DNA from: Promethearchaeota archaeon
Lineage (GTDB): Archaea > Asgardarchaeota > Odinarchaeia > Odinarchaeales > JBHLKK01
DNA: 32,000 bases
Assembly (NCBI GenBank): GCA_048939465.1
Contig: JBHLPL010000007.1
Span: forward strand, 1 to 32,000
Direction: 5' to 3'
This document shows, one piece after another, positions 51 to 15,429 of the stretch; position 1 is the first letter of the stretch, and each line of letters begins with the position of its first letter. The translations under genes and the position numbers were made by a program. The notes below the pieces were generated by a model that saw nothing but the letters and a program-made list of their open reading frames with translations, was not told where the DNA came from and made no database searches.

Positions 51-1514
51 TCATTTTGGAATTCTACGAATACCGAACTTCTCCAATTCCTTTAGCATGA
101 TCCTATCAAGCTCTTTCTCTGTATCTTCTGAAAGCATCTTTTTGGATTCTGATTCTTCTATAATAGACTCCACTTCTTCCTTGACCCTCTTTAATATATC
201 CTTTCTACCCTCTTTCTCCCATAGCTTTCTACCGGTCCTGTCAACAACCTTTGAAGGAACGTAATGCTCTTTTTCGAACCAATTCAGTGTATGCTTTAAA
301 CCCATGAAGCTCCCGTTTTTCCCTCTGACATTGAGTTCCTCCACTGCCATCGTTTCGCTTGAGACTTCGAAGCCTTTGGCTATTCGAAGAGCCATACCAC
401 ATATTTCGTTGTCAATGACAAGCTTTTCAATAGATTGAGTATTCTCAAATTCAAGCATTCCTGCACCTGATATGACGTTTATGCCTGCCATAGCTCCCAT
501 AACGGCTCCTATTCCACTTTCAAATCCTGCTTGGGCATCCACGACTTTCGAGTCTGACATCCCGAGATAGGAATGAGTGGGTAGACCAAGCCATTTCCCG
601 ATCTGAGAATATCCTATGTCAATTAGGACGGTCTCAGCGGCCCCCATCGGAGTTGTACCATACCTCATATCAAATGCGCTCGGAGAACCCCCGTAAACTA
701 CAGGAGTCCCAGGTTGAATTGCTTGTGCAAGAACAATTCCGCTCAAGGTCTCGGATGTATGTTGAACCAATGCACCTGCAATCGTAACGGGAGCATTTGC
801 CCCCATCAGAGGCATTGAGATGAGCTCAACAGGAATTTGATGATGTGCGCAATCGATTAAGCTCTCTGCGGTTATTTCACTGAACATTAAGGGAGGCGAT
901 GGACAGCAATCGAATATTGCGGTAGGATGCCTGGAAAGGTCTTCTCCCCCTCCTAGAGCTGTTGAGAGCATGTTTTTCATAACAAGCGTCCCGTCGACTG
1001 TAAATGTTCCAGTAATTATTGGCTTTATGGAATGTTTCAAAACGAGATATAACCTGTAACGGTCAGCAATATCTGAAGGAATGTCACTGCAGACCAGAGA
1101 CGTGCTCTGTGCGTGAATGTTGGACAAATTCTCAGCCACCTTTATGAACTTGATAAAATCTCCTGTAACAGGTTTCCGAGTGGTTCCTGATTTACTGTCC
1201 AAGAAGTTGAGAGCAGCTGAGCCCGGATTAAAGTACACATTGTTATTGCCAATGTCAAGTCTCCCTCTACCATCGCGTGAGTAAAGAGCGAACGAAGTTG
1301 GGCAACTTTTGAGGCTTTTCGAAACAAGATCTTCTGGGAATTTGACTACTCCACTCCTATTATCAACTTTGGCACCAGCTTGAGCAAGTATCTTGATGGC
1401 TCTCTTGCTCTGGAATATTATCCCCGTCGTTGACAATATCTTTAGTGAAGCCTCGTAGATTCTTTCCATGTCTTCAATTGAGAGTGCACGTACTGAGAGT
1501 CTAGATTGCACCAT
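51..1514 (-). CDS. mttB: Trimethylamine methyltransferase (MttB) superfamily corrinoid-dependent methyltransferase, non-pyrrolysine type
   Basis: Family motifs SPL(M)F, MGANAPVTIAGALVQ, PGTPVVYG, DMRYG, SDSKVVDAQAGFES, GINVISGAGMLE, KLVIDNEI. The ORF has no in-frame TAG, and Met sits at the Pyl-equivalent position (YLG-M-SDSK). Start moved to ATG 1514, which has a GGGAGGGA SD upstream. Confidence 0.93.
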   Translation of the reverse strand: MVQSRLSVRALSIEDMERIYEASLKILSTTGIIFQSKRAIKILAQAGAKVDNRSGVVKFPEDLVSKSLKSCPTSFALYSRDGRGRLDIGNNNVYFNPGSAALNFLDSKSGTTRKPVTGDFIKFIKVAENLSNIHAQSTSLVCSDIPSDIADRYRLYLVLKHSIKPIITGTFTVDGTLVMKNMLSTALGGGEDLSRHPTAIFDCCPSPPLMFSEITAESLIDCAHHQIPVELISMPLMGANAPVTIAGALVQHTSETLSGIVLAQAIQPGTPVVYGGSPSAFDMRYGTTPMGAAETVLIDIGYSQIGKWLGLPTHSYLGMSDSKVVDAQAGFESGIGAVMGAMAGINVISGAGMLEFENTQSIEKLVIDNEICGMALRIAKGFEVSSETMAVEELNVRGKNGSFMGLKHTLNWFEKEHYVPSKVVDRTGRKLWEKEGRKDILKRVKEEVESIIEESESKKMLSEDTEKELDRIMLKELEKFGIRRIPK

Positions 1515-1556
1515 TTCAAAGATCCCTCCCCGTAACAAATATCAATATATTTGAAA

Positions 1557-8061: not shown

Positions 8062-8991
8062 ATGGCCAGGTTGATAAAAAAGCTGAAAACCAGTGAGCTG
8101 GACTTAATTCAACAATGCACCCTGGGCCCATCAAATAAACCTATAGGGGAGGTCAGTCTGGGAGAAGAACTAATCATTGAAACCTGTGACCGTTACGGAG
8201 ACGTCGTTGGTCGAGAGCACCCGTTGGATGTCATTCATAAGAAGAAACTTCCAATATATGAGAATCCAGTAACCGGTCCTTTGTATATAGTAGGAGCTGA
8301 GCCCGGAGACACCCTTATTGTGGAAATATTGGATATTGAGTTGCCTGATAGGGGAACCGTAACCCTCAAACCCGGTTGTGGAGCTCTTCAACCATGGCTT
8401 GAACAACAACCTACAATAACCAAATCCGTGAGAATCCAGAATGGCAAAATCTATTATGAAACTAATCACGGGAAAATCGTCGAGCTAGCCGCCAAGCCTT
8501 TTATAGGGACAATAGGCGTGGCACCGGCCGTCGAGGCAATTTCAACATTCACGCCTGAAAAGCATGGCGGAAATATGGATTGTGAAGATGTGTGCGCAGG
8601 GAGCAAATTATTCCTGCCGGTGTCAGTTGAAGGTGCACTGTTCGGTCTGGGGGACATTCATGCTTTGCAGGGAGATGGTGAGATTTGTGGCTATGCGGTG
8701 GAAGTCACAGCAAAAGTCAGACTCAGGCTAGGTATCCAAAAGAATAAGACTATCGAGTGGCCACGTATAGAGACAGCTGATGCAATAGCAACGGTTTGCA
8801 GCAGCAAGCCTTTAGAGGACGCTGCTCGTTTGGCATACGTAGAATTGATTAAGTGGTTAGAGGAAGATTACGGATTTGACCGATACGACGCATACATGTT
8901 CCTCAGCATTGCTGCAAGAGCTCGCATAGCTCAGATTGTGGACCCGTTATATACGGTGGAAGCAATCTTGCCAAAGAGATATTTGACATAA
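8062..8991 (+). CDS. Acetamidase/formamidase family protein
   Basis: NPVTGPLYIVGAEPGDTL, PFIGTIGVAP, HGGNMDC, GDIHALQGDGEICG. Confidence 0.92.
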   Translation: MARLIKKLKTSELDLIQQCTLGPSNKPIGEVSLGEELIIETCDRYGDVVGREHPLDVIHKKKLPIYENPVTGPLYIVGAEPGDTLIVEILDIELPDRGTVTLKPGCGALQPWLEQQPTITKSVRIQNGKIYYETNHGKIVELAAKPFIGTIGVAPAVEAISTFTPEKHGGNMDCEDVCAGSKLFLPVSVEGALFGLGDIHALQGDGEICGYAVEVTAKVRLRLGIQKNKTIEWPRIETADAIATVCSSKPLEDAARLAYVELIKWLEEDYGFDRYDAYMFLSIAARARIAQIVDPLYTVEAILPKRYLT

Positions 8992-10037: not shown

Positions 10038-10970
10038 CTAAGGCTTAGGAATTGCCAAATCCCTTGGTCCCTTACCGGAGAGCTTGACTTCTGGACAATT
10101 CTTCTCAACGATATCCCTTATTATTTCTGCATATTTCACCTTCTCTCGAGCCATAAAAGCAAGCCAATCTGGGCTAACCCAAGGTTTGTAAGAATTACCC
10201 ACTGTGGGGCCAGGTTCAATTTTGAAATATACGGGGGCACATGTCCTTGCAATTTCTGGAGTATCATAGAATCTGACAAACCCACCGAAGCTGTCGAATA
10301 GATAGACATGAACATCTATCGGCATGCTGACTGAAGCTCTGATGGCGGCAAGTTGAGGTAGTGACAAGTCTCCCAGTGGATTGAATGTTGATGCACCAAG
10401 TATTTCAAGGACTTTTCCTCCTGCTGGGTTACCGTGACCTGCGAAAATAGAAACCTTCAGAACCACATCCTTTGGGATTTCCCCAATTTTCTTCAATTCG
10501 TTCAAGACCCACAAGAGTCCTTCATCGATGACAAGAAAACCTCTAAATCCAAACTCGATTGTTCTTTTAATATCTGCAATCACCTGTGCCAGCTGCTCTG
10601 ATCCCCGGAACCGCATCCCTGACAAGGCCCCCTCAGGAGTAACGATTTGTCTTCCGACATCCCACGGGGATCTCGGTCCGGGAGTGATAATTACCTCCAT
10701 TTTGGCGTCCGCAGCCGTTTTTGCAAACGCTTGAAGTTCCTCATCTGAAAGAAGTGTCGAACCCATAACCGTTGAGATTAACCTGTGAACAGGAACATCT
10801 CGCTTCTCGGCTTCATCGATCAAGGCCTCCAAAGTTGAAGGTCGTTCAACACCACTAATCTCCATTCGGTAATGGCATCCGTCTGGAAAACGTTTTTCTG
10901 AGGACGGAAGATCGTACCTGTCTCTTCCTGGGATTCCAATCTTTTCCAGCGCTTTTCTAACATTCTCCAT
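10038..10970 (-). CDS. Conserved TIM-barrel protein of unknown function (usually annotated as U32-peptidase-like)
   Basis: Motifs LPSSEKRFPDGCHYRMEI, TPGPR..WD, RFRG.EQL, GFRGFLVIDEGLLW, KVSIFAGHGNP, DLSLPQLAAIR, GGFVRFYD.PEIAR. GGAGGGG SD upstream (start ATG 10970 or TTG 10976). Confidence 0.75.
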   Translation of the reverse strand: MENVRKALEKIGIPGRDRYDLPSSEKRFPDGCHYRMEISGVERPSTLEALIDEAEKRDVPVHRLISTVMGSTLLSDEELQAFAKTAADAKMEVIITPGPRSPWDVGRQIVTPEGALSGMRFRGSEQLAQVIADIKRTIEFGFRGFLVIDEGLLWVLNELKKIGEIPKDVVLKVSIFAGHGNPAGGKVLEILGASTFNPLGDLSLPQLAAIRASVSMPIDVHVYLFDSFGGFVRFYDTPEIARTCAPVYFKIEPGPTVGNSYKPWVSPDWLAFMAREKVKYAEIIRDIVEKNCPEVKLSGKGPRDLAIPKP

Positions 10971-11102
10971 TTGCAAGTTATCCCCTCCTACTAAGTGATA
11001 AGCATTATTAATTAGAATGAAGGTATTAATTCTTTTCTGAATTTGATTCATGAACATGAAGAACTACGCTTGGTGAGGTATGAAGCCCTGAGGGTGTAAA
11101 CT

Positions 11103-12536
11103 ATGAAGGAATTCAGACTCAAAGGTATTATGCCGGCGCTTGTTACGCCATTCACCAGAACAGGTGAGGTTGATCCAGGAGCATTCAAAAGACTGATTCG
11201 GTTTGTGATCGAAGAAGGAGTTACAGGTATCCTGGCTGGTGGTACGACAGGTGAGTTCATAAATCTCTCGTTAGAGGAAAGGAAGGCCACAATCAATCTT
11301 GCTGTAGACGAATCGAATGGACGTGTTCCTGTCATCGCCGGAACAGGTCATAGTTCCACAAGACAAACAATTGAGCTAAGCAATTACGCCTACGATGCTG
11401 GAGCTGATGCAGGATTGGTCGTAGCTCCCTACTATCTAGGAGCCGCAGATAAGAGCCTTTATGAGCATTTCTATCGAGTTGCTGAGGCCGTTGAACTTCC
11501 TCTGATTCTTTATAACATCCCCCAGTGTGCCGGTAATTATATTCCGCGTGAGGTCGTCGAGGATCTGGCCGCCATAGACAACATAGTTGGAATGAAGGAT
11601 AGTAGTGGCAACTTCCCCTACTTGATGAGCCTTCTTGAAAAAGTCGGGGACAAGATCAGTATAGTCGTTGGATATGATGAGATTGTTTTTCCTGCTTTGG
11701 TAGCTGGAGCACAAGGTGCCATCCTGGCCAGCGCCAATATTATTCCCGACATCTGGCTAAAGATATATGATGCCGTGCAAAGCAACCATCTAGCTGAAGC
11801 TCGAAAGCTTCAGATGGAGATTCAAAAACTAACCAGGATAATTACCCGTCATGGTGGGGCACTCCCCGTCAAATCTGCTTTAAAAATGATGAATCACAAA
11901 GTGGGCAAAACCAGGATGCCTATTGTCAGCGGAGGTTCTCTAACCTGGGAAGTCAGAGAAGAAATGAGGTTGGAGCTTGAGAAACTAGGCAAGATTAGAG
12001 CTGCGATGAAAAGGATTGAAAAAGTGGCAGAGCCCGTTAAGGAGCGTTTTAGGGACCTCGGTATAACGGTCGGTGACATTTCATCGCAGAGTCTTAAGAT
12101 AGGAGAGGGTTCGGCCGGTGATGGTGCCGAATTCGTTGAAGCAAGCATCGTTGCAGGATCATCTGAAGGAGTTGTTGGAGAAGGATATGCCACTGCGTTA
12201 ACTTGCCCAAGACCCGGTTATGAAGCCTTGACTGTTATTCTGGAGCCAAACCTGATGGTGAGGCCTCCAACAATAATCGTTCCGGAAGTCGAGATTAAAG
12301 ACATGAGACAGGCAAGTATGATCTATGGTCCCGTACAGGCTGCTGCCGGAATGGCGATACTGGAGAATCTTAGGAATAGGATAATCCCAGAAGATGCAAT
12401 TAGCAAGAATGTAATGATCCTAAAGATTTTTGCTCATCCTAGGGCCATTGATCGTTATAGTCTTTACTGGAACTGCTACGAGGCGATAGGAAAAGCTGTC
12501 AAGAGTGCTTGGCAAGGAGGAGAAAAAAATGAGTAA
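11103..12536 (+). CDS. Fusion: DapA/NAL-family class I aldolase (aa 1-298) + Fae-like domain (aa ~331-473, from nt 12093), paralog A
   Basis: GTTGE, PYY, LYNIP, KDSSG (Schiff-base K165). The C-terminus IGEG.AGDG.E...PNLMVRPPT...YGPVQ...IIPED...IFAHP aligns with Fae. Confidence 0.88.
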   Translation: MKEFRLKGIMPALVTPFTRTGEVDPGAFKRLIRFVIEEGVTGILAGGTTGEFINLSLEERKATINLAVDESNGRVPVIAGTGHSSTRQTIELSNYAYDAGADAGLVVAPYYLGAADKSLYEHFYRVAEAVELPLILYNIPQCAGNYIPREVVEDLAAIDNIVGMKDSSGNFPYLMSLLEKVGDKISIVVGYDEIVFPALVAGAQGAILASANIIPDIWLKIYDAVQSNHLAEARKLQMEIQKLTRIITRHGGALPVKSALKMMNHKVGKTRMPIVSGGSLTWEVREEMRLELEKLGKIRAAMKRIEKVAEPVKERFRDLGITVGDISSQSLKIGEGSAGDGAEFVEASIVAGSSEGVVGEGYATALTCPRPGYEALTVILEPNLMVRPPTIIVPEVEIKDMRQASMIYGPVQAAAGMAILENLRNRIIPEDAISKNVMILKIFAHPRAIDRYSLYWNCYEAIGKAVKSAWQGGEKNE

Positions 12537-14007
12537 GAGAAAAGGCGGCTGGCTAAAGGGAGTCATGCCCGCTCTCATAACCCCGTTTGATAAGAAAGGA
12601 GAAATCAAGGAGGATTCGTTAAGAACTCTTGTGAACTACACTCTTGAATGTGGGGTTACCGGCGTTGTTCCGGTAGGTACCACGGGAGAATTCGTCAACC
12701 TATCAATCGAAGAACGAGAAAGGGTCTACGATATCGTTATTGATCAAGTGAATGGCAAAGTTCCTGTGATAATTGGTTCGGGTGATAGCGGTACCAGAGA
12801 GGTAATTCAGCTAACAAGGTACGGAAAGGATGCTGGGGCTGACGCAGCGCTTGTTGTCACTCCATACTTTTTGAAGCCAACCTACAAGGAGATTTTTGAG
12901 CATTTCAAGAAAGTCTCTGAAGAAGTAGACTTCCCGATAGTACTGTATAATATTCCTGCCTGTACTGATGTTCATATCGGTTGGTGGACGGTCGAGGGAC
13001 TCGCTGATCTTGAGAACATAATTGGTATCAAGGATAGTAGCGGAAACATGTCTTTCATCATGACTCTGATGGAGAAGGTAAAGAAGAAGATTGCTGTAAT
13101 GTGCGGCTGGGATGAGATCGGCTTTCCTGCTTTGGCTGCCGGAGCAGATGGTCTAATTTTGGCAAGCGCGAATCTGATTCCGGACATCTGGATCGATCTC
13201 TATAACGCAGTTAAGGGCGAGGATTATGAGAAGGCCCGAAATCTACAGCTGAAAATACAGAAACTTGTAAGAATAGTCTGTAGACAAGGAGCAACTGAAG
13301 CTGTTAAGACAGGTCTGCAAATGATGGGTTTCGACGTAGGTTTTTCGCGTAAGCCAGTCGTAACGGGAGATATATTCCGCTATGAAGACCGCGAGGAATT
13401 GCGTCTGCAATTGGAAACCTTAAACAAAATAAGATCCAAGAGAATATCAATCTGTATTGACTCAAAAATTACTGAGAGTATGGTTGCTGCTATTCCTGAA
13501 ACACCTGATACAATTCAAGATTTCGCTTTGAAAGTCGGTGAAGCTTTGGCAGGCCCCCCTTCGTTTGAAGTTGCCCATATTGACCTTCTTATCGGGAAAA
13601 AAGATGGACCCTTAAAAAAGGCTTGCGATAAGGCATTGTCCAATAAAATAATGGGACATGAACCGAAAGTTGTGCTTCAAAGACCGCTTACTCTTCTGAT
13701 ACCGACCGTCTCGGTCAGAACAGAGAAGCAGGCAGCACACGTTTATGAGTTTGCCTCAAAAGGAGTAGCAAGAGCTGTAGAAGCAAGCGTGAAGGATGGT
13801 ATAGTTCCTGAAGAAATCTTGGATGAAATACTTCTAATTGCAAATGCTTTCGTGCATCCAACAGCTGTCAATGAGAAGAGGATATATTTTAACAATTACA
13901 AAGCAATGAGACATGCGATAAGGAAGGCCCTTGAAGAACGGCCGACAATTGATGAGCTTCTCCGCCTAGGTGAAACTGCCCGACACCCCTTCAGATACAC
14001 TCCCTAG
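12529..14007 (+). CDS. Fusion: DapA/NAL-family class I aldolase + formaldehyde-activating enzyme (Fae) domain (from nt ~13528), paralog B
   Basis: GTTGE, LYNIP, KDSSG (K168). Fae motifs VGEALAG..EVAHIDLLIG, FVHP, NNYKAM..AI.KAL, C-terminal HPF. ATG 12529 has GGAGG at 12516-12520 and overlaps the paralog A stop by 8 bp. Confidence 0.92.
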   Translation: MSKRKGGWLKGVMPALITPFDKKGEIKEDSLRTLVNYTLECGVTGVVPVGTTGEFVNLSIEERERVYDIVIDQVNGKVPVIIGSGDSGTREVIQLTRYGKDAGADAALVVTPYFLKPTYKEIFEHFKKVSEEVDFPIVLYNIPACTDVHIGWWTVEGLADLENIIGIKDSSGNMSFIMTLMEKVKKKIAVMCGWDEIGFPALAAGADGLILASANLIPDIWIDLYNAVKGEDYEKARNLQLKIQKLVRIVCRQGATEAVKTGLQMMGFDVGFSRKPVVTGDIFRYEDREELRLQLETLNKIRSKRISICIDSKITESMVAAIPETPDTIQDFALKVGEALAGPPSFEVAHIDLLIGKKDGPLKKACDKALSNKIMGHEPKVVLQRPLTLLIPTVSVRTEKQAAHVYEFASKGVARAVEASVKDGIVPEEILDEILLIANAFVHPTAVNEKRIYFNNYKAMRHAIRKALEERPTIDELLRLGETARHPFRYTP

Positions 14008-14088: not shown

Positions 14089-15429
14089 TTGGATAAGAAA
14101 ATAGTTGGCATTGCAGTCGCTGCAGTCATAGTGATAGGTGTCGGAGTTTCTGTCTGGTATTTCGTCCTGTTGCCCATGAATCCTCCGGAGAAGTGGGGTC
14201 TTGTTCTTGCCGCATCAAATGACTTCCATGGTGACAAAGATATGAGCATCCCGAATTCAGGTTTTGAGTTAGATCCATATGATCCATCTCCTTGGGAACC
14301 CAATGTATCGAGCGGTACATCTTGGAATATAGATACCACTGAAAGCCATAGTGGTCAGAATTCGTTGAAAATTAACTCATCTAATCCTGCTGGTGATTCT
14401 GAGGTTTACCTACAGGCTCCTATAATGATAACACCGGGTCTTGAGTATATTCTCCGTGGCTGGATAAAAACTAGCAACGTTATCGGCTTCGCTACTATAG
14501 GACTATGGTGGCTAAACAGCGGAGCCCCTCCATCACCAGTCAACATTGTTTCCAAGGTTTATTCAACACCTGGACTGAACGGAACAAACGACTGGACACT
14601 GCTTACACTCTCTGCAGTCGCACCACCTACTGCTACCTTTGTCACTCCTATTCTGAGACTGAAAGGCACCGGAGTTGCTTGGTTTGATGACATTTCATTC
14701 TTTGGGGTGTTTCAAACTCTTGTAACCGATTCAGATGCTTATCCTTCTCAAGCTCTTCAGGCTTACTATATACTCAAAGGCAATGGCTATGACGATAATC
14801 ACATAATTCTAATGCTCTACCACACAAACGATAGTGTCATAGACATATATGGCACCGGAGCAAACGATCTTACGAATGCTACAGTCGATGTGGAAAATGA
14901 TAATGTGAATAAAAGCAGATTCTCTTCCGAAGTCTTGAGTTTGGCATCCTTGGCTGATATCAACGATGATGTATTGATATATGTTGTGGCACATGGCTCT
15001 CGCACTGGAGACATAGCATCGATTCATTTCGAGTCAGATGGCAGTTCTATGAACGAGACGGAGTTCTCAACTCTTATAAACCAATTTAATTGCAGCAGGA
15101 TGACCATTCTGGTTGATGGTTGCTACACTGGCAACTTCATAAGTTCTCTGAACGCTCCAGGTGAAAGTAGGATATCAATTTCAGCTGCAAGTAATATCAC
15201 GGCATGGTACTGGACTTCTTCAAATGCTAGCCACTATGCTGGCTCGTGGTTCTTCCATCCATTCTGGGAGAGACTCAAAACTGGAGTTAGCATAGGCTCT
15301 GCGCATCAATATGCGATTGGAACTATTCCGACGACAGTTGGACCATTTGCAAACACCACTGTGGATGATATTCAAAGCCCGATTCTGCAGGACAACGCAC
15401 TTGATGCGAACACCTACACATTCCTCTGA
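14089..15429 (+). CDS. Membrane-anchored caspase/C13 (legumain)-fold peptidase-like protein with inserted CBM4/9-like (galactose-binding-like) domain
   Basis: N-terminal TM; KWGLVLAAS strand; IPNSGFE...W...SLKI...WFDDISF insert; AYYIL..NGYDDNHIILM; dyad motifs AHG (14992) and DGCYTG (15121). Confidence 0.72.
   Translation: MDKKIVGIAVAAVIVIGVGVSVWYFVLLPMNPPEKWGLVLAASNDFHGDKDMSIPNSGFELDPYDPSPWEPNVSSGTSWNIDTTESHSGQNSLKINSSNPAGDSEVYLQAPIMITPGLEYILRGWIKTSNVIGFATIGLWWLNSGAPPSPVNIVSKVYSTPGLNGTNDWTLLTLSAVAPPTATFVTPILRLKGTGVAWFDDISFFGVFQTLVTDSDAYPSQALQAYYILKGNGYDDNHIILMLYHTNDSVIDIYGTGANDLTNATVDVENDNVNKSRFSSEVLSLASLADINDDVLIYVVAHGSRTGDIASIHFESDGSSMNETEFSTLINQFNCSRMTILVDGCYTGNFISSLNAPGESRISISAASNITAWYWTSSNASHYAGSWFFHPFWERLKTGVSIGSAHQYAIGTIPTTVGPFANTTVDDIQSPILQDNALDANTYTFL

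Follow-up and report, generated by a model that had tools for sequence, protein, structure and literature searches.

Two adjacent genes of an archaeon of the order Odinarchaeales (Promethearchaeota), here called A and B, belong to a real, widespread and uncharacterised family of proteins in which an aldolase domain of the DHDPS (dihydrodipicolinate synthase) superfamily is fused to a Fae (formaldehyde-activating enzyme) domain. They lie in positions 1 to 32,000 of contig JBHLPL010000007.1 (assembly GCA_048939465.1), the stretch analysed here and referred to as the window. Comparative analysis of the two proteins gives good support to the conclusion that they do not make 4-hydroxy-tetrahydrodipicolinate, the product implied by the dapA label that most of their relatives bear. 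The presence of the Fae fusion throughout the clade is the main clue to function. As the simplest reading we tentatively propose, with slightly less than even confidence, that the pair is a class I (lysine Schiff-base) pyruvate aldolase with a Fae module that exchanges a formaldehyde-level one-carbon (C1) unit with a pterin. No paper on a DHDPS-Fae fusion was found in the literature.

Both A and B were matched by the Pfam profiles PF00701 (DHDPS; E about 1e-75) and PF08714 (Fae), and they are 42% identical to each other over their full length. The PF08714 match is complete in B and covers profile positions 1-139 of 159 in A, with both proteins exceeding the Pfam cut-off of 27. Against TIGR03126 (Fae), which has a cut-off of 118 bits, B scores 142 bits (profile positions 2-160 of 160) and A falls just under the cut-off with 116.8 bits (positions 2-142 of 160). 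Searches with the two proteins as queries returned 5243 and 4610 homologues at E <= 0.001, from Asgard archaea, Thermoplasmata, Bathyarchaeota, Hadarchaea and Chloroflexi, and both domains were present in every one of the best 120 matches for each query. Among sampled genomes, the fusion was detected in 151 of 301 Asgard archaea and the A+B pair in 50 of 201 Anaerolineae (G301-G501; loci L113-L118).

In DapA, Arg138 binds the carboxylate of aspartate semialdehyde, and Tyr107 is supplied across the tight dimer. A gap-free alignment of A and B with the DapA, NanA and YagE sequences of E. coli (NC_000913.3) places a cysteine of each protein (YNIPQC in A, YNIPAC in B) on Arg138 (YNVPSRTG), and Tyr111 of A (PYY) and Phe114 of B (PYF) on Tyr107 (PYYNRP), just as an earlier note on this DNA had read these residues. 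The same register is seen in the phmmer alignment to the solved DHDPS 3pud, with LYNIPQCAG over LYNVPGRTG; the PDB entries 1s5t, 1s5v and 1s5w were among the results of the same search. Equivalents of Thr44, Thr45, Tyr133 and Lys161 are present in both A and B (GTTGEF, YNIP and KDSSG; Y137/Y140 and K165/K168), the threonines of A being Thr48 and Thr49.

In a tree of 447 DHDPS domains (FastTree, LG model), which included E. coli DapA, NanA (N-acetylneuraminate lyase, NAL) and YagE along with about 130 unfused representatives, 313 of the 315 fused proteins fall in a clade of their own (support 0.999). Three well-supported subclades were recognized among the fusions, namely A (n=139, support 0.989), B (n=147, support 0.966) and S (n=34), the last of which holds the genes from genomes with a single fusion copy. 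Not one of the 315 fusions has an arginine at position 138 (DapA numbering), which is occupied by Cys in 211, Val in 58, Thr in 28, Leu in 6, Met and Ala in 3 each, Ser and Tyr in 2 each, and Phe and Gln in 1 each; Arg138 is present in 54 of the roughly 130 unfused representatives.

The genome to which the window belongs (1.96 Mb, 91% complete) has no DHDPS-family gene besides A and B. It also yielded no match to the C-terminal domain of DapB, diaminopimelate (DAP) epimerase (DapF), the C-terminal domain of Asd or homoserine dehydrogenase (Hom), in searches that matched 11, 9, 14 and 14 of 14 control genomes, respectively. In the absence of matches to Asd, DapB and DapF, neither the supply of the DapA substrate nor the downstream steps are encoded. 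Two further Asgard genomes that possess both the fusion and Hom (G206 and G064) have, in addition, an unfused canonical DapA with GTTGES, PYYNKP and YNVPSRTG. Thus, it is because position 138 departs from DapA and because the genome has no aspartate-semialdehyde/DAP pathway that A and B are held not to be DHDPS enzymes, in agreement with the earlier note.

That note had also anticipated the misannotation of both genes by automated pipelines. The two proteins score 217 and 226 bits against TIGR00674 (dapA), above its cut-off of 206, and their relatives are mostly named in databases as dapA ('4-hydroxy-tetrahydrodipicolinate synthase') or else as 'formaldehyde-activating enzyme'. A and B share with DapA (EC 4.3.3.7; TIGR00674, PF00701) the fold, the hidden Markov model family, about 35-40% identity and the residues Lys161, Tyr133 and Thr44/Thr45, with Tyr107 retained in A only. 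They differ from it in the missing Arg138, the fusion to Fae, a host without matches to the pathway genes, and the motifs GTTGEF in place of GTTGES, KDSSG in place of KEATG and G[HWY]DE in place of GDDA.

In the mechanism that we propose, the aldolase domain would form a pyruvate enamine, and this would add to, or release, a formaldehyde-level C1 unit, with a pterin on the Fae module as recipient or donor of that unit; the net reaction would be pyruvate + C1 <-> 4-hydroxy-2-oxobutanoate. The carrier in the window archaeon would be tetrahydromethanopterin (H4MPT), since its genome has Mch and, adjoining it, a 410-aa ORF with a separate canonical Fae match, which is probably Fae-Hps. Across the sampled Asgard genomes the fusion was found only in Mch-bearing families, with Mch present in 10 of the 10 families that bear the fusion, and the fusion in none of 80 genomes from the nine families that lack Mch.

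The closest functional analogue of the pair is archaeal Fae-Hps (NF009833; H4MPT hydro-lyase/3-hexulose-6-phosphate synthase), which likewise combines Fae with a formaldehyde-handling aldolase. In Fae-Hps, however, the partner is an OMPDC-family Hps rather than a DHDPS-type pyruvate aldolase and the domain order is the reverse of the aldolase-Fae order seen here. The fusion, moreover, occurs as A/B duplicates with split Fae motifs and is found also in bacteria without H4MPT genes; the NF009833 profile matches A and B in its Fae part only, their 90-108 bits falling short of its cut-off of 274. A precedent for direct transfer is offered by PanB (ketopantoate hydroxymethyltransferase), which places the C1 unit of a methylene-pterin onto a 2-oxo acid and is a metal-dependent enzyme of another family. 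We considered the pair as a substitute for PanB and set this aside, as PanB itself is present in the window genome. RhmA has a different fold and belongs to the class II enzymes. Such aldol chemistry is feasible for pyruvate aldolases: as would the proposed enzyme, RhmA and other E. coli pyruvate aldolases of the synthetic homoserine cycle join pyruvate to formaldehyde, giving 4-hydroxy-2-oxobutanoate, which is described as a non-native product and its formation only as a promiscuous activity (PMC8879981; PMC13279387). In these enzymes it is a side activity on free formaldehyde and there is no pterin module.

Several observations weigh against the proposed chemistry. A G-[HWY]-D-E motif (DapA positions 186-189) is found family-wide, resembling GYDE of NanA and GYDD of YagE, and nearly all clade A and B proteins have an arginine at DapA position 245 (Arg249 in A, Arg252 in B), which clade S and one Asgard B clade lack. 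Either element could contact a larger hydroxylated or acidic acceptor and not formaldehyde; the earlier note had pictured an acceptor that lacks a carboxylate and is probably small. The conserved neighbours, two uncharacterised families of TIM barrels, give no indication of a pathway. Among the 50 pair-bearing Anaerolineae only 7 have Mch and only 1 has RFAP synthase. In those that lack Mch the module cannot depend on H4MPT, and hence the enzyme is not H4MPT-dependent everywhere; the ligand of the Fae module may there be another pterin or none.

These points bear on an alternative that we consider unlikely, if well short of negligible, in which the acceptor is a larger hydroxylated aldehyde, as for NAL and the 2-keto-3-deoxy-sugar-acid aldolases, and the Fae-like module serves in assembly, regulation or scavenging instead of direct C1 transfer. 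Besides the G-aromatic-D-E/D motif and the want of H4MPT genes in most Anaerolineae carriers, it is favored by the hydrophobic character of position 138, which is Leu in both NanA and YagE; these and YjhH belong to the same superfamily and have in common a residue other than Arg at this position. On the other hand, A and B score only 156-188 bits against cut-offs of 281-382 for these aldolases, NanA and YagE are not fused to Fae, and neither a sugar-acid context nor sugar-acid genes were found near the pair. The Fae fusion is, furthermore, universal in the clade (313/315), and its motifs are whole in single-copy forms and complementary in pairs, which argues for selection on a working Fae-type site.

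An extension of the pyruvate-C1 proposal, possible though doubtful in our judgment, is that the pair represents a dedicated natural enzyme joining pyruvate to pterin-bound formaldehyde, with 4-hydroxy-2-oxobutanoate as product, and that in archaea without Asd and Hom it feeds the synthesis of homoserine and threonine. A route to homoserine via 4-hydroxy-2-oxobutanoate has so far been described only as an engineered pathway. In the Asgard sample the fusion and Hom tend not to occur together, with 24 genomes having both, 127 the fusion alone, 92 Hom alone and 58 neither, the genomes being related and the counts therefore not independent. The window genome carries a threonine-synthase-type gene (contig C83 1965-2933; L096:1345-2760) of the NF004170/PRK05638 type, which at 411 bits falls just under the cut-off of 421, and despite its presence no Asd, homoserine dehydrogenase or above-cut-off ThrB was found there. 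We do not use the retention of ThrC without Hom as support for the homoserine route, because the PRK05638-type relative of ThrC also occurs as a second copy in Hom-bearing genomes and the observation is thus ambiguous. Two results speak against the route: in one mixed Asgard family the members that bear the fusion and lack Hom are also without a high-scoring ThrC, and Hom is kept in 37 of the 50 fusion-bearing Anaerolineae, so that the fusion is not a general replacement for it.

Comparison with M. extorquens Fae (1Y5Y) throws light on the relationship between the two paralogs. All four Fae elements (AHID, the ILEPNxxVKPxT loop, GPAQ and the C-terminal HPF) are kept in the single-copy proteins of clade S. 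Clade A has kept the loop and GPxQ and lost the histidine motif and the tail, whereas clade B has kept AHID and the tail, with a 5-6-residue deletion in the loop and no GPxQ. Neither A nor B, therefore, has the four canonical motifs in one chain, unlike their single-copy relatives. In all 21 mapped pairs (Asgard loci and the window) gene A precedes gene B, and the two either adjoin or overlap. The Fae site is said, in the paper on the Fae structure, to lie between neighbouring subunits, in which case complementary motif loss is the outcome expected of a composite A/B site. Because each Fae domain lost, after duplication, a different half of the motifs that are whole in single-copy forms, A and B probably co-assemble as paralogous subunits of one enzyme. 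The heteromer suggested in the earlier note, as an A/B complex, thus finds support in complementary Fae motif loss and fixed gene order, and not in the Tyr/Phe difference at position 107 that the note had taken as a sign of heteromer asymmetry (see below).

It is also conceivable, though distinctly unlikely, that the aldolase site of one paralog is degenerate and non-catalytic, the changes at positions 138 and 107 marking relaxed constraint and not new chemistry. The B clade of one Asgard family combines Phe107, Val138 and Asn245, and Lys161 and Thr44/Thr45 are gone from two B genes (GLSDASG, ASLGEF). In clade A the two positions appear linked within the chain, since by raw counts proteins without Cys138 have 43 Phe to 9 Tyr at position 107 and those with it 10 Phe to 73 Tyr, an association for which the independent-pairs test is without power (p about 0.5) and from which we draw no claim of coupling in cis. 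Against such degeneracy, A and B of the window both retain the lysine, the Thr-Thr pair, Tyr133 and the cysteine, and elsewhere the changes sit in A and not in B. The two B-type genes with GLSDASG and ASLGEF (L060:8046-9524, minus strand, and L073:9787-11235, plus strand) are nevertheless open and full-length; from the residues lost, their aldolase domain appears to be a pseudo-enzyme.

The tree used to count changes at positions 138 and 107 was inferred from an alignment stripped of the trait columns. At position 138 there have been at least 15 changes between Cys and other residues, and at least 25 changes of the residue itself. The cysteine is absent from 8 of the 34 clade S proteins; L075 and L076, for example, have Val, whereas L087-L089 and L091 have Leu. 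As these are single-copy genes, no other subunit is able to supply the thiol. The two nearest orthologues of A, at 86% and 79% identity, have Ser at this site (YNIPQSTG), the latter coming under the name Hodarchaeota. Because the cysteine is exchangeable with Val, Thr, Leu, Met, Ala and Ser, we read Cys142 and Cys145 as residues lining the pocket, like the Leu of NanA and YagE, and not as covalent catalysts. In the mechanism outlined above the cysteine would be a small, uncharged residue at the entrance to the acceptor pocket, where Val, Thr, Ser, Leu or Met can take its place.

Position 107 is equally labile, with at least 21 changes between Tyr and Phe, in either paralog and in single-copy genes. 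Residues 106/107 are YY in 68, YF in 36, FF in 17 and FY in 15 proteins of clade A; FY in 70, YY in 49, YF in 25 and FF in 2 of clade B; and FY in 16, YY in 15 and YF in 3 of clade S. Forty-five A/B pairs were available, 21 from fetched loci and 24 (outside Asgard) paired indirectly. Their states at position 107 (A, B) are YY in 16, YF in 18, FY in 9 and FF in 2, which is about what independent assortment would give, with about 5 FF pairs expected by chance. Tyr in A with Phe in B, as in the window, is seen in one large Asgard family, and the reverse is frequent in pairs from Thermoplasmata and Chloroflexi. Phe107 further occurs in three single-copy genes, and it persists in the two Asgard B genes that lack Lys161 and Thr44/45, where a tight dimer of A with B would leave the site of A, as well, without a tyrosine in trans. 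This pattern argues against taking the Tyr/Phe swap as a sign that A completes the site of B, and position 107 would instead be a tolerated, labile position in the proposed enzyme; Y107F is reportedly the mildest of the triad mutants of E. coli DHDPS.

These counts leave little room for the specific chemistry put forward in the earlier note, namely that the shared cysteine traps formaldehyde as a hemithioacetal and that A donates its Tyr to B in an AB tight dimer, which we now regard as improbable. Cys is indeed the commonest residue at position 138, and in 43 of the 45 pairs one or both members retain Cys and one or both retain Tyr107. Yet 211 of 315 falls short of conservation among the fusions, the losses extend to single-copy genes (Val or Leu) and to the closest orthologues of A (Ser), and B proteins that have lost the lysine still carry Phe107. 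We also examined as a possible rule that each pair keeps at least one Cys or Tyr, and dropped it, since the counts match chance. Finally, that A and B are after all the DapA of the organism, as a bifunctional lysine enzyme, we consider extremely improbable, for the TIGR00674 scores above cut-off and the lack of any other DHDPS-family gene are outweighed by the missing Arg138, the lack of Asd, DapB, DapF and Hom in a 91%-complete genome, and the true DapA that stands beside the fusion in other genomes.

The coordinates of the two genes and their principal residues are collected in the table. ATG 12529, which follows a GGAGG box, is more likely than GTG 12505 to be the start of gene B; the earlier numbering of its residues agrees with this start (492 aa). 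The two genes then overlap by 8 nt, and the layout of the junction suggests that their translation is coupled.

Table. Coordinates of the fused aldolase-Fae genes, their key residues and the adjoining divergent gene in the window
Feature	Position	Strand	Description
Gene A	11103-12536	+	477 aa; DHDPS-superfamily aldolase domain (about residues 6-276) and C-terminally truncated Fae domain (residues 333-471)
Gene B	12529-14007	+	492 aa from ATG; DHDPS-superfamily aldolase domain and full-length Fae domain
Gene B, alternative start	GTG 12505, frame to 14007	+	In-frame, upstream of ATG 12529
A/B junction	12514-12536	+	GGAGG box, then gene B ATG (12529) overlapping gene A TAA (12534-12536) in ATGAGTAA
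A Tyr111 (P109-Y110-Y111)	codon 11433-11435	+	Equivalent of E. coli DapA Tyr107
A Cys142 (Y137-N-I-P-Q-C142)	codon 11526-11528	+	Equivalent of DapA Arg138
A Lys165 (GMKDSSG)	11595-11597	+	Equivalent of DapA Schiff-base Lys161
A Fae domain	12099-12521	+	VEAS in place of AHID histidine motif; ILEPN loop and GPxQ retained; C-terminal HPF tail absent
B Phe114 (P112-Y113-F114; 492-aa numbering)	12868-12870	+	Equivalent of DapA Tyr107
B Cys145 (Y140-N-I-P-A-C145; 492-aa numbering)	12961-12963	+	Equivalent of DapA Arg138
B Lys168 (GIKDSSG)	13030-13032	+	Equivalent of Schiff-base Lys161
B Fae domain	13534-13992	+	AHID and C-terminal ARHPF tail retained; 5-6-residue loop deletion; GPxQ lost
Divergent TIM-barrel gene	10038-11057	-	Probable start near 10970; adjoins the fusion in several Asgard families

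The divergent neighbour has no Pfam match and is placed near U32-like clusters by a protein atlas (score 0.98). With 60-77% identity across Asgard families it is better conserved than the fusion genes, and it adjoins the fusion in eight loci examined (the window, L062, L075, L076, L084-L086 and L091). Its AlphaFold model (pLDDT 79) is a TIM barrel, whose best but weak matches are class II aldolases (TM score about 0.5). A second family, of about 428 aa and 64-88% identity, lies on the same strand directly upstream of the fusion in 12 single-copy loci, e.g. L077:10587-11930 (minus strand). It has no Pfam or PDB sequence match, and its AlphaFold model is likewise a TIM barrel with weak, generic structural matches only; profile-profile comparison links it weakly (27% probability, E 6.6e-4) to the TIM-barrel neighbour in the window.

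Other genes of the window include an MttB-family methyltransferase (51-1538, minus strand) and an acetamidase/formamidase-family gene (8062-8991, plus strand), both C1-related and less than 10 kb from the pair; neither was seen as a conserved neighbour in the other loci. Directly downstream of gene B is a membrane-anchored protein with a Peptidase_C13 (legumain-like) match (14089-15429, plus strand). Farther along, bacterial-type uvrA and uvrC lie side by side in this archaeal genome (16217-21019, plus strand).

The aldolase-Fae family accounts for thousands of entries labelled dapA in Asgard archaea, Thermoplasmata, Bathyarchaeia, Hadarchaea and Anaerolineae, and metabolic reconstructions that use these labels would wrongly credit the carriers with lysine biosynthesis. 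The residues worth mutating are the invariant Lys161, Tyr133 and Thr44/45, the KDSSG and GxDE motifs and also the split Fae motifs, with the labile Cys138 and Tyr/Phe107 being targets of lower priority. Should the pair indeed join pyruvate to a C1 unit on a carrier, it would provide a counterpart in nature to a reaction for which synthetic methylotrophy has only promiscuous enzymes at present.

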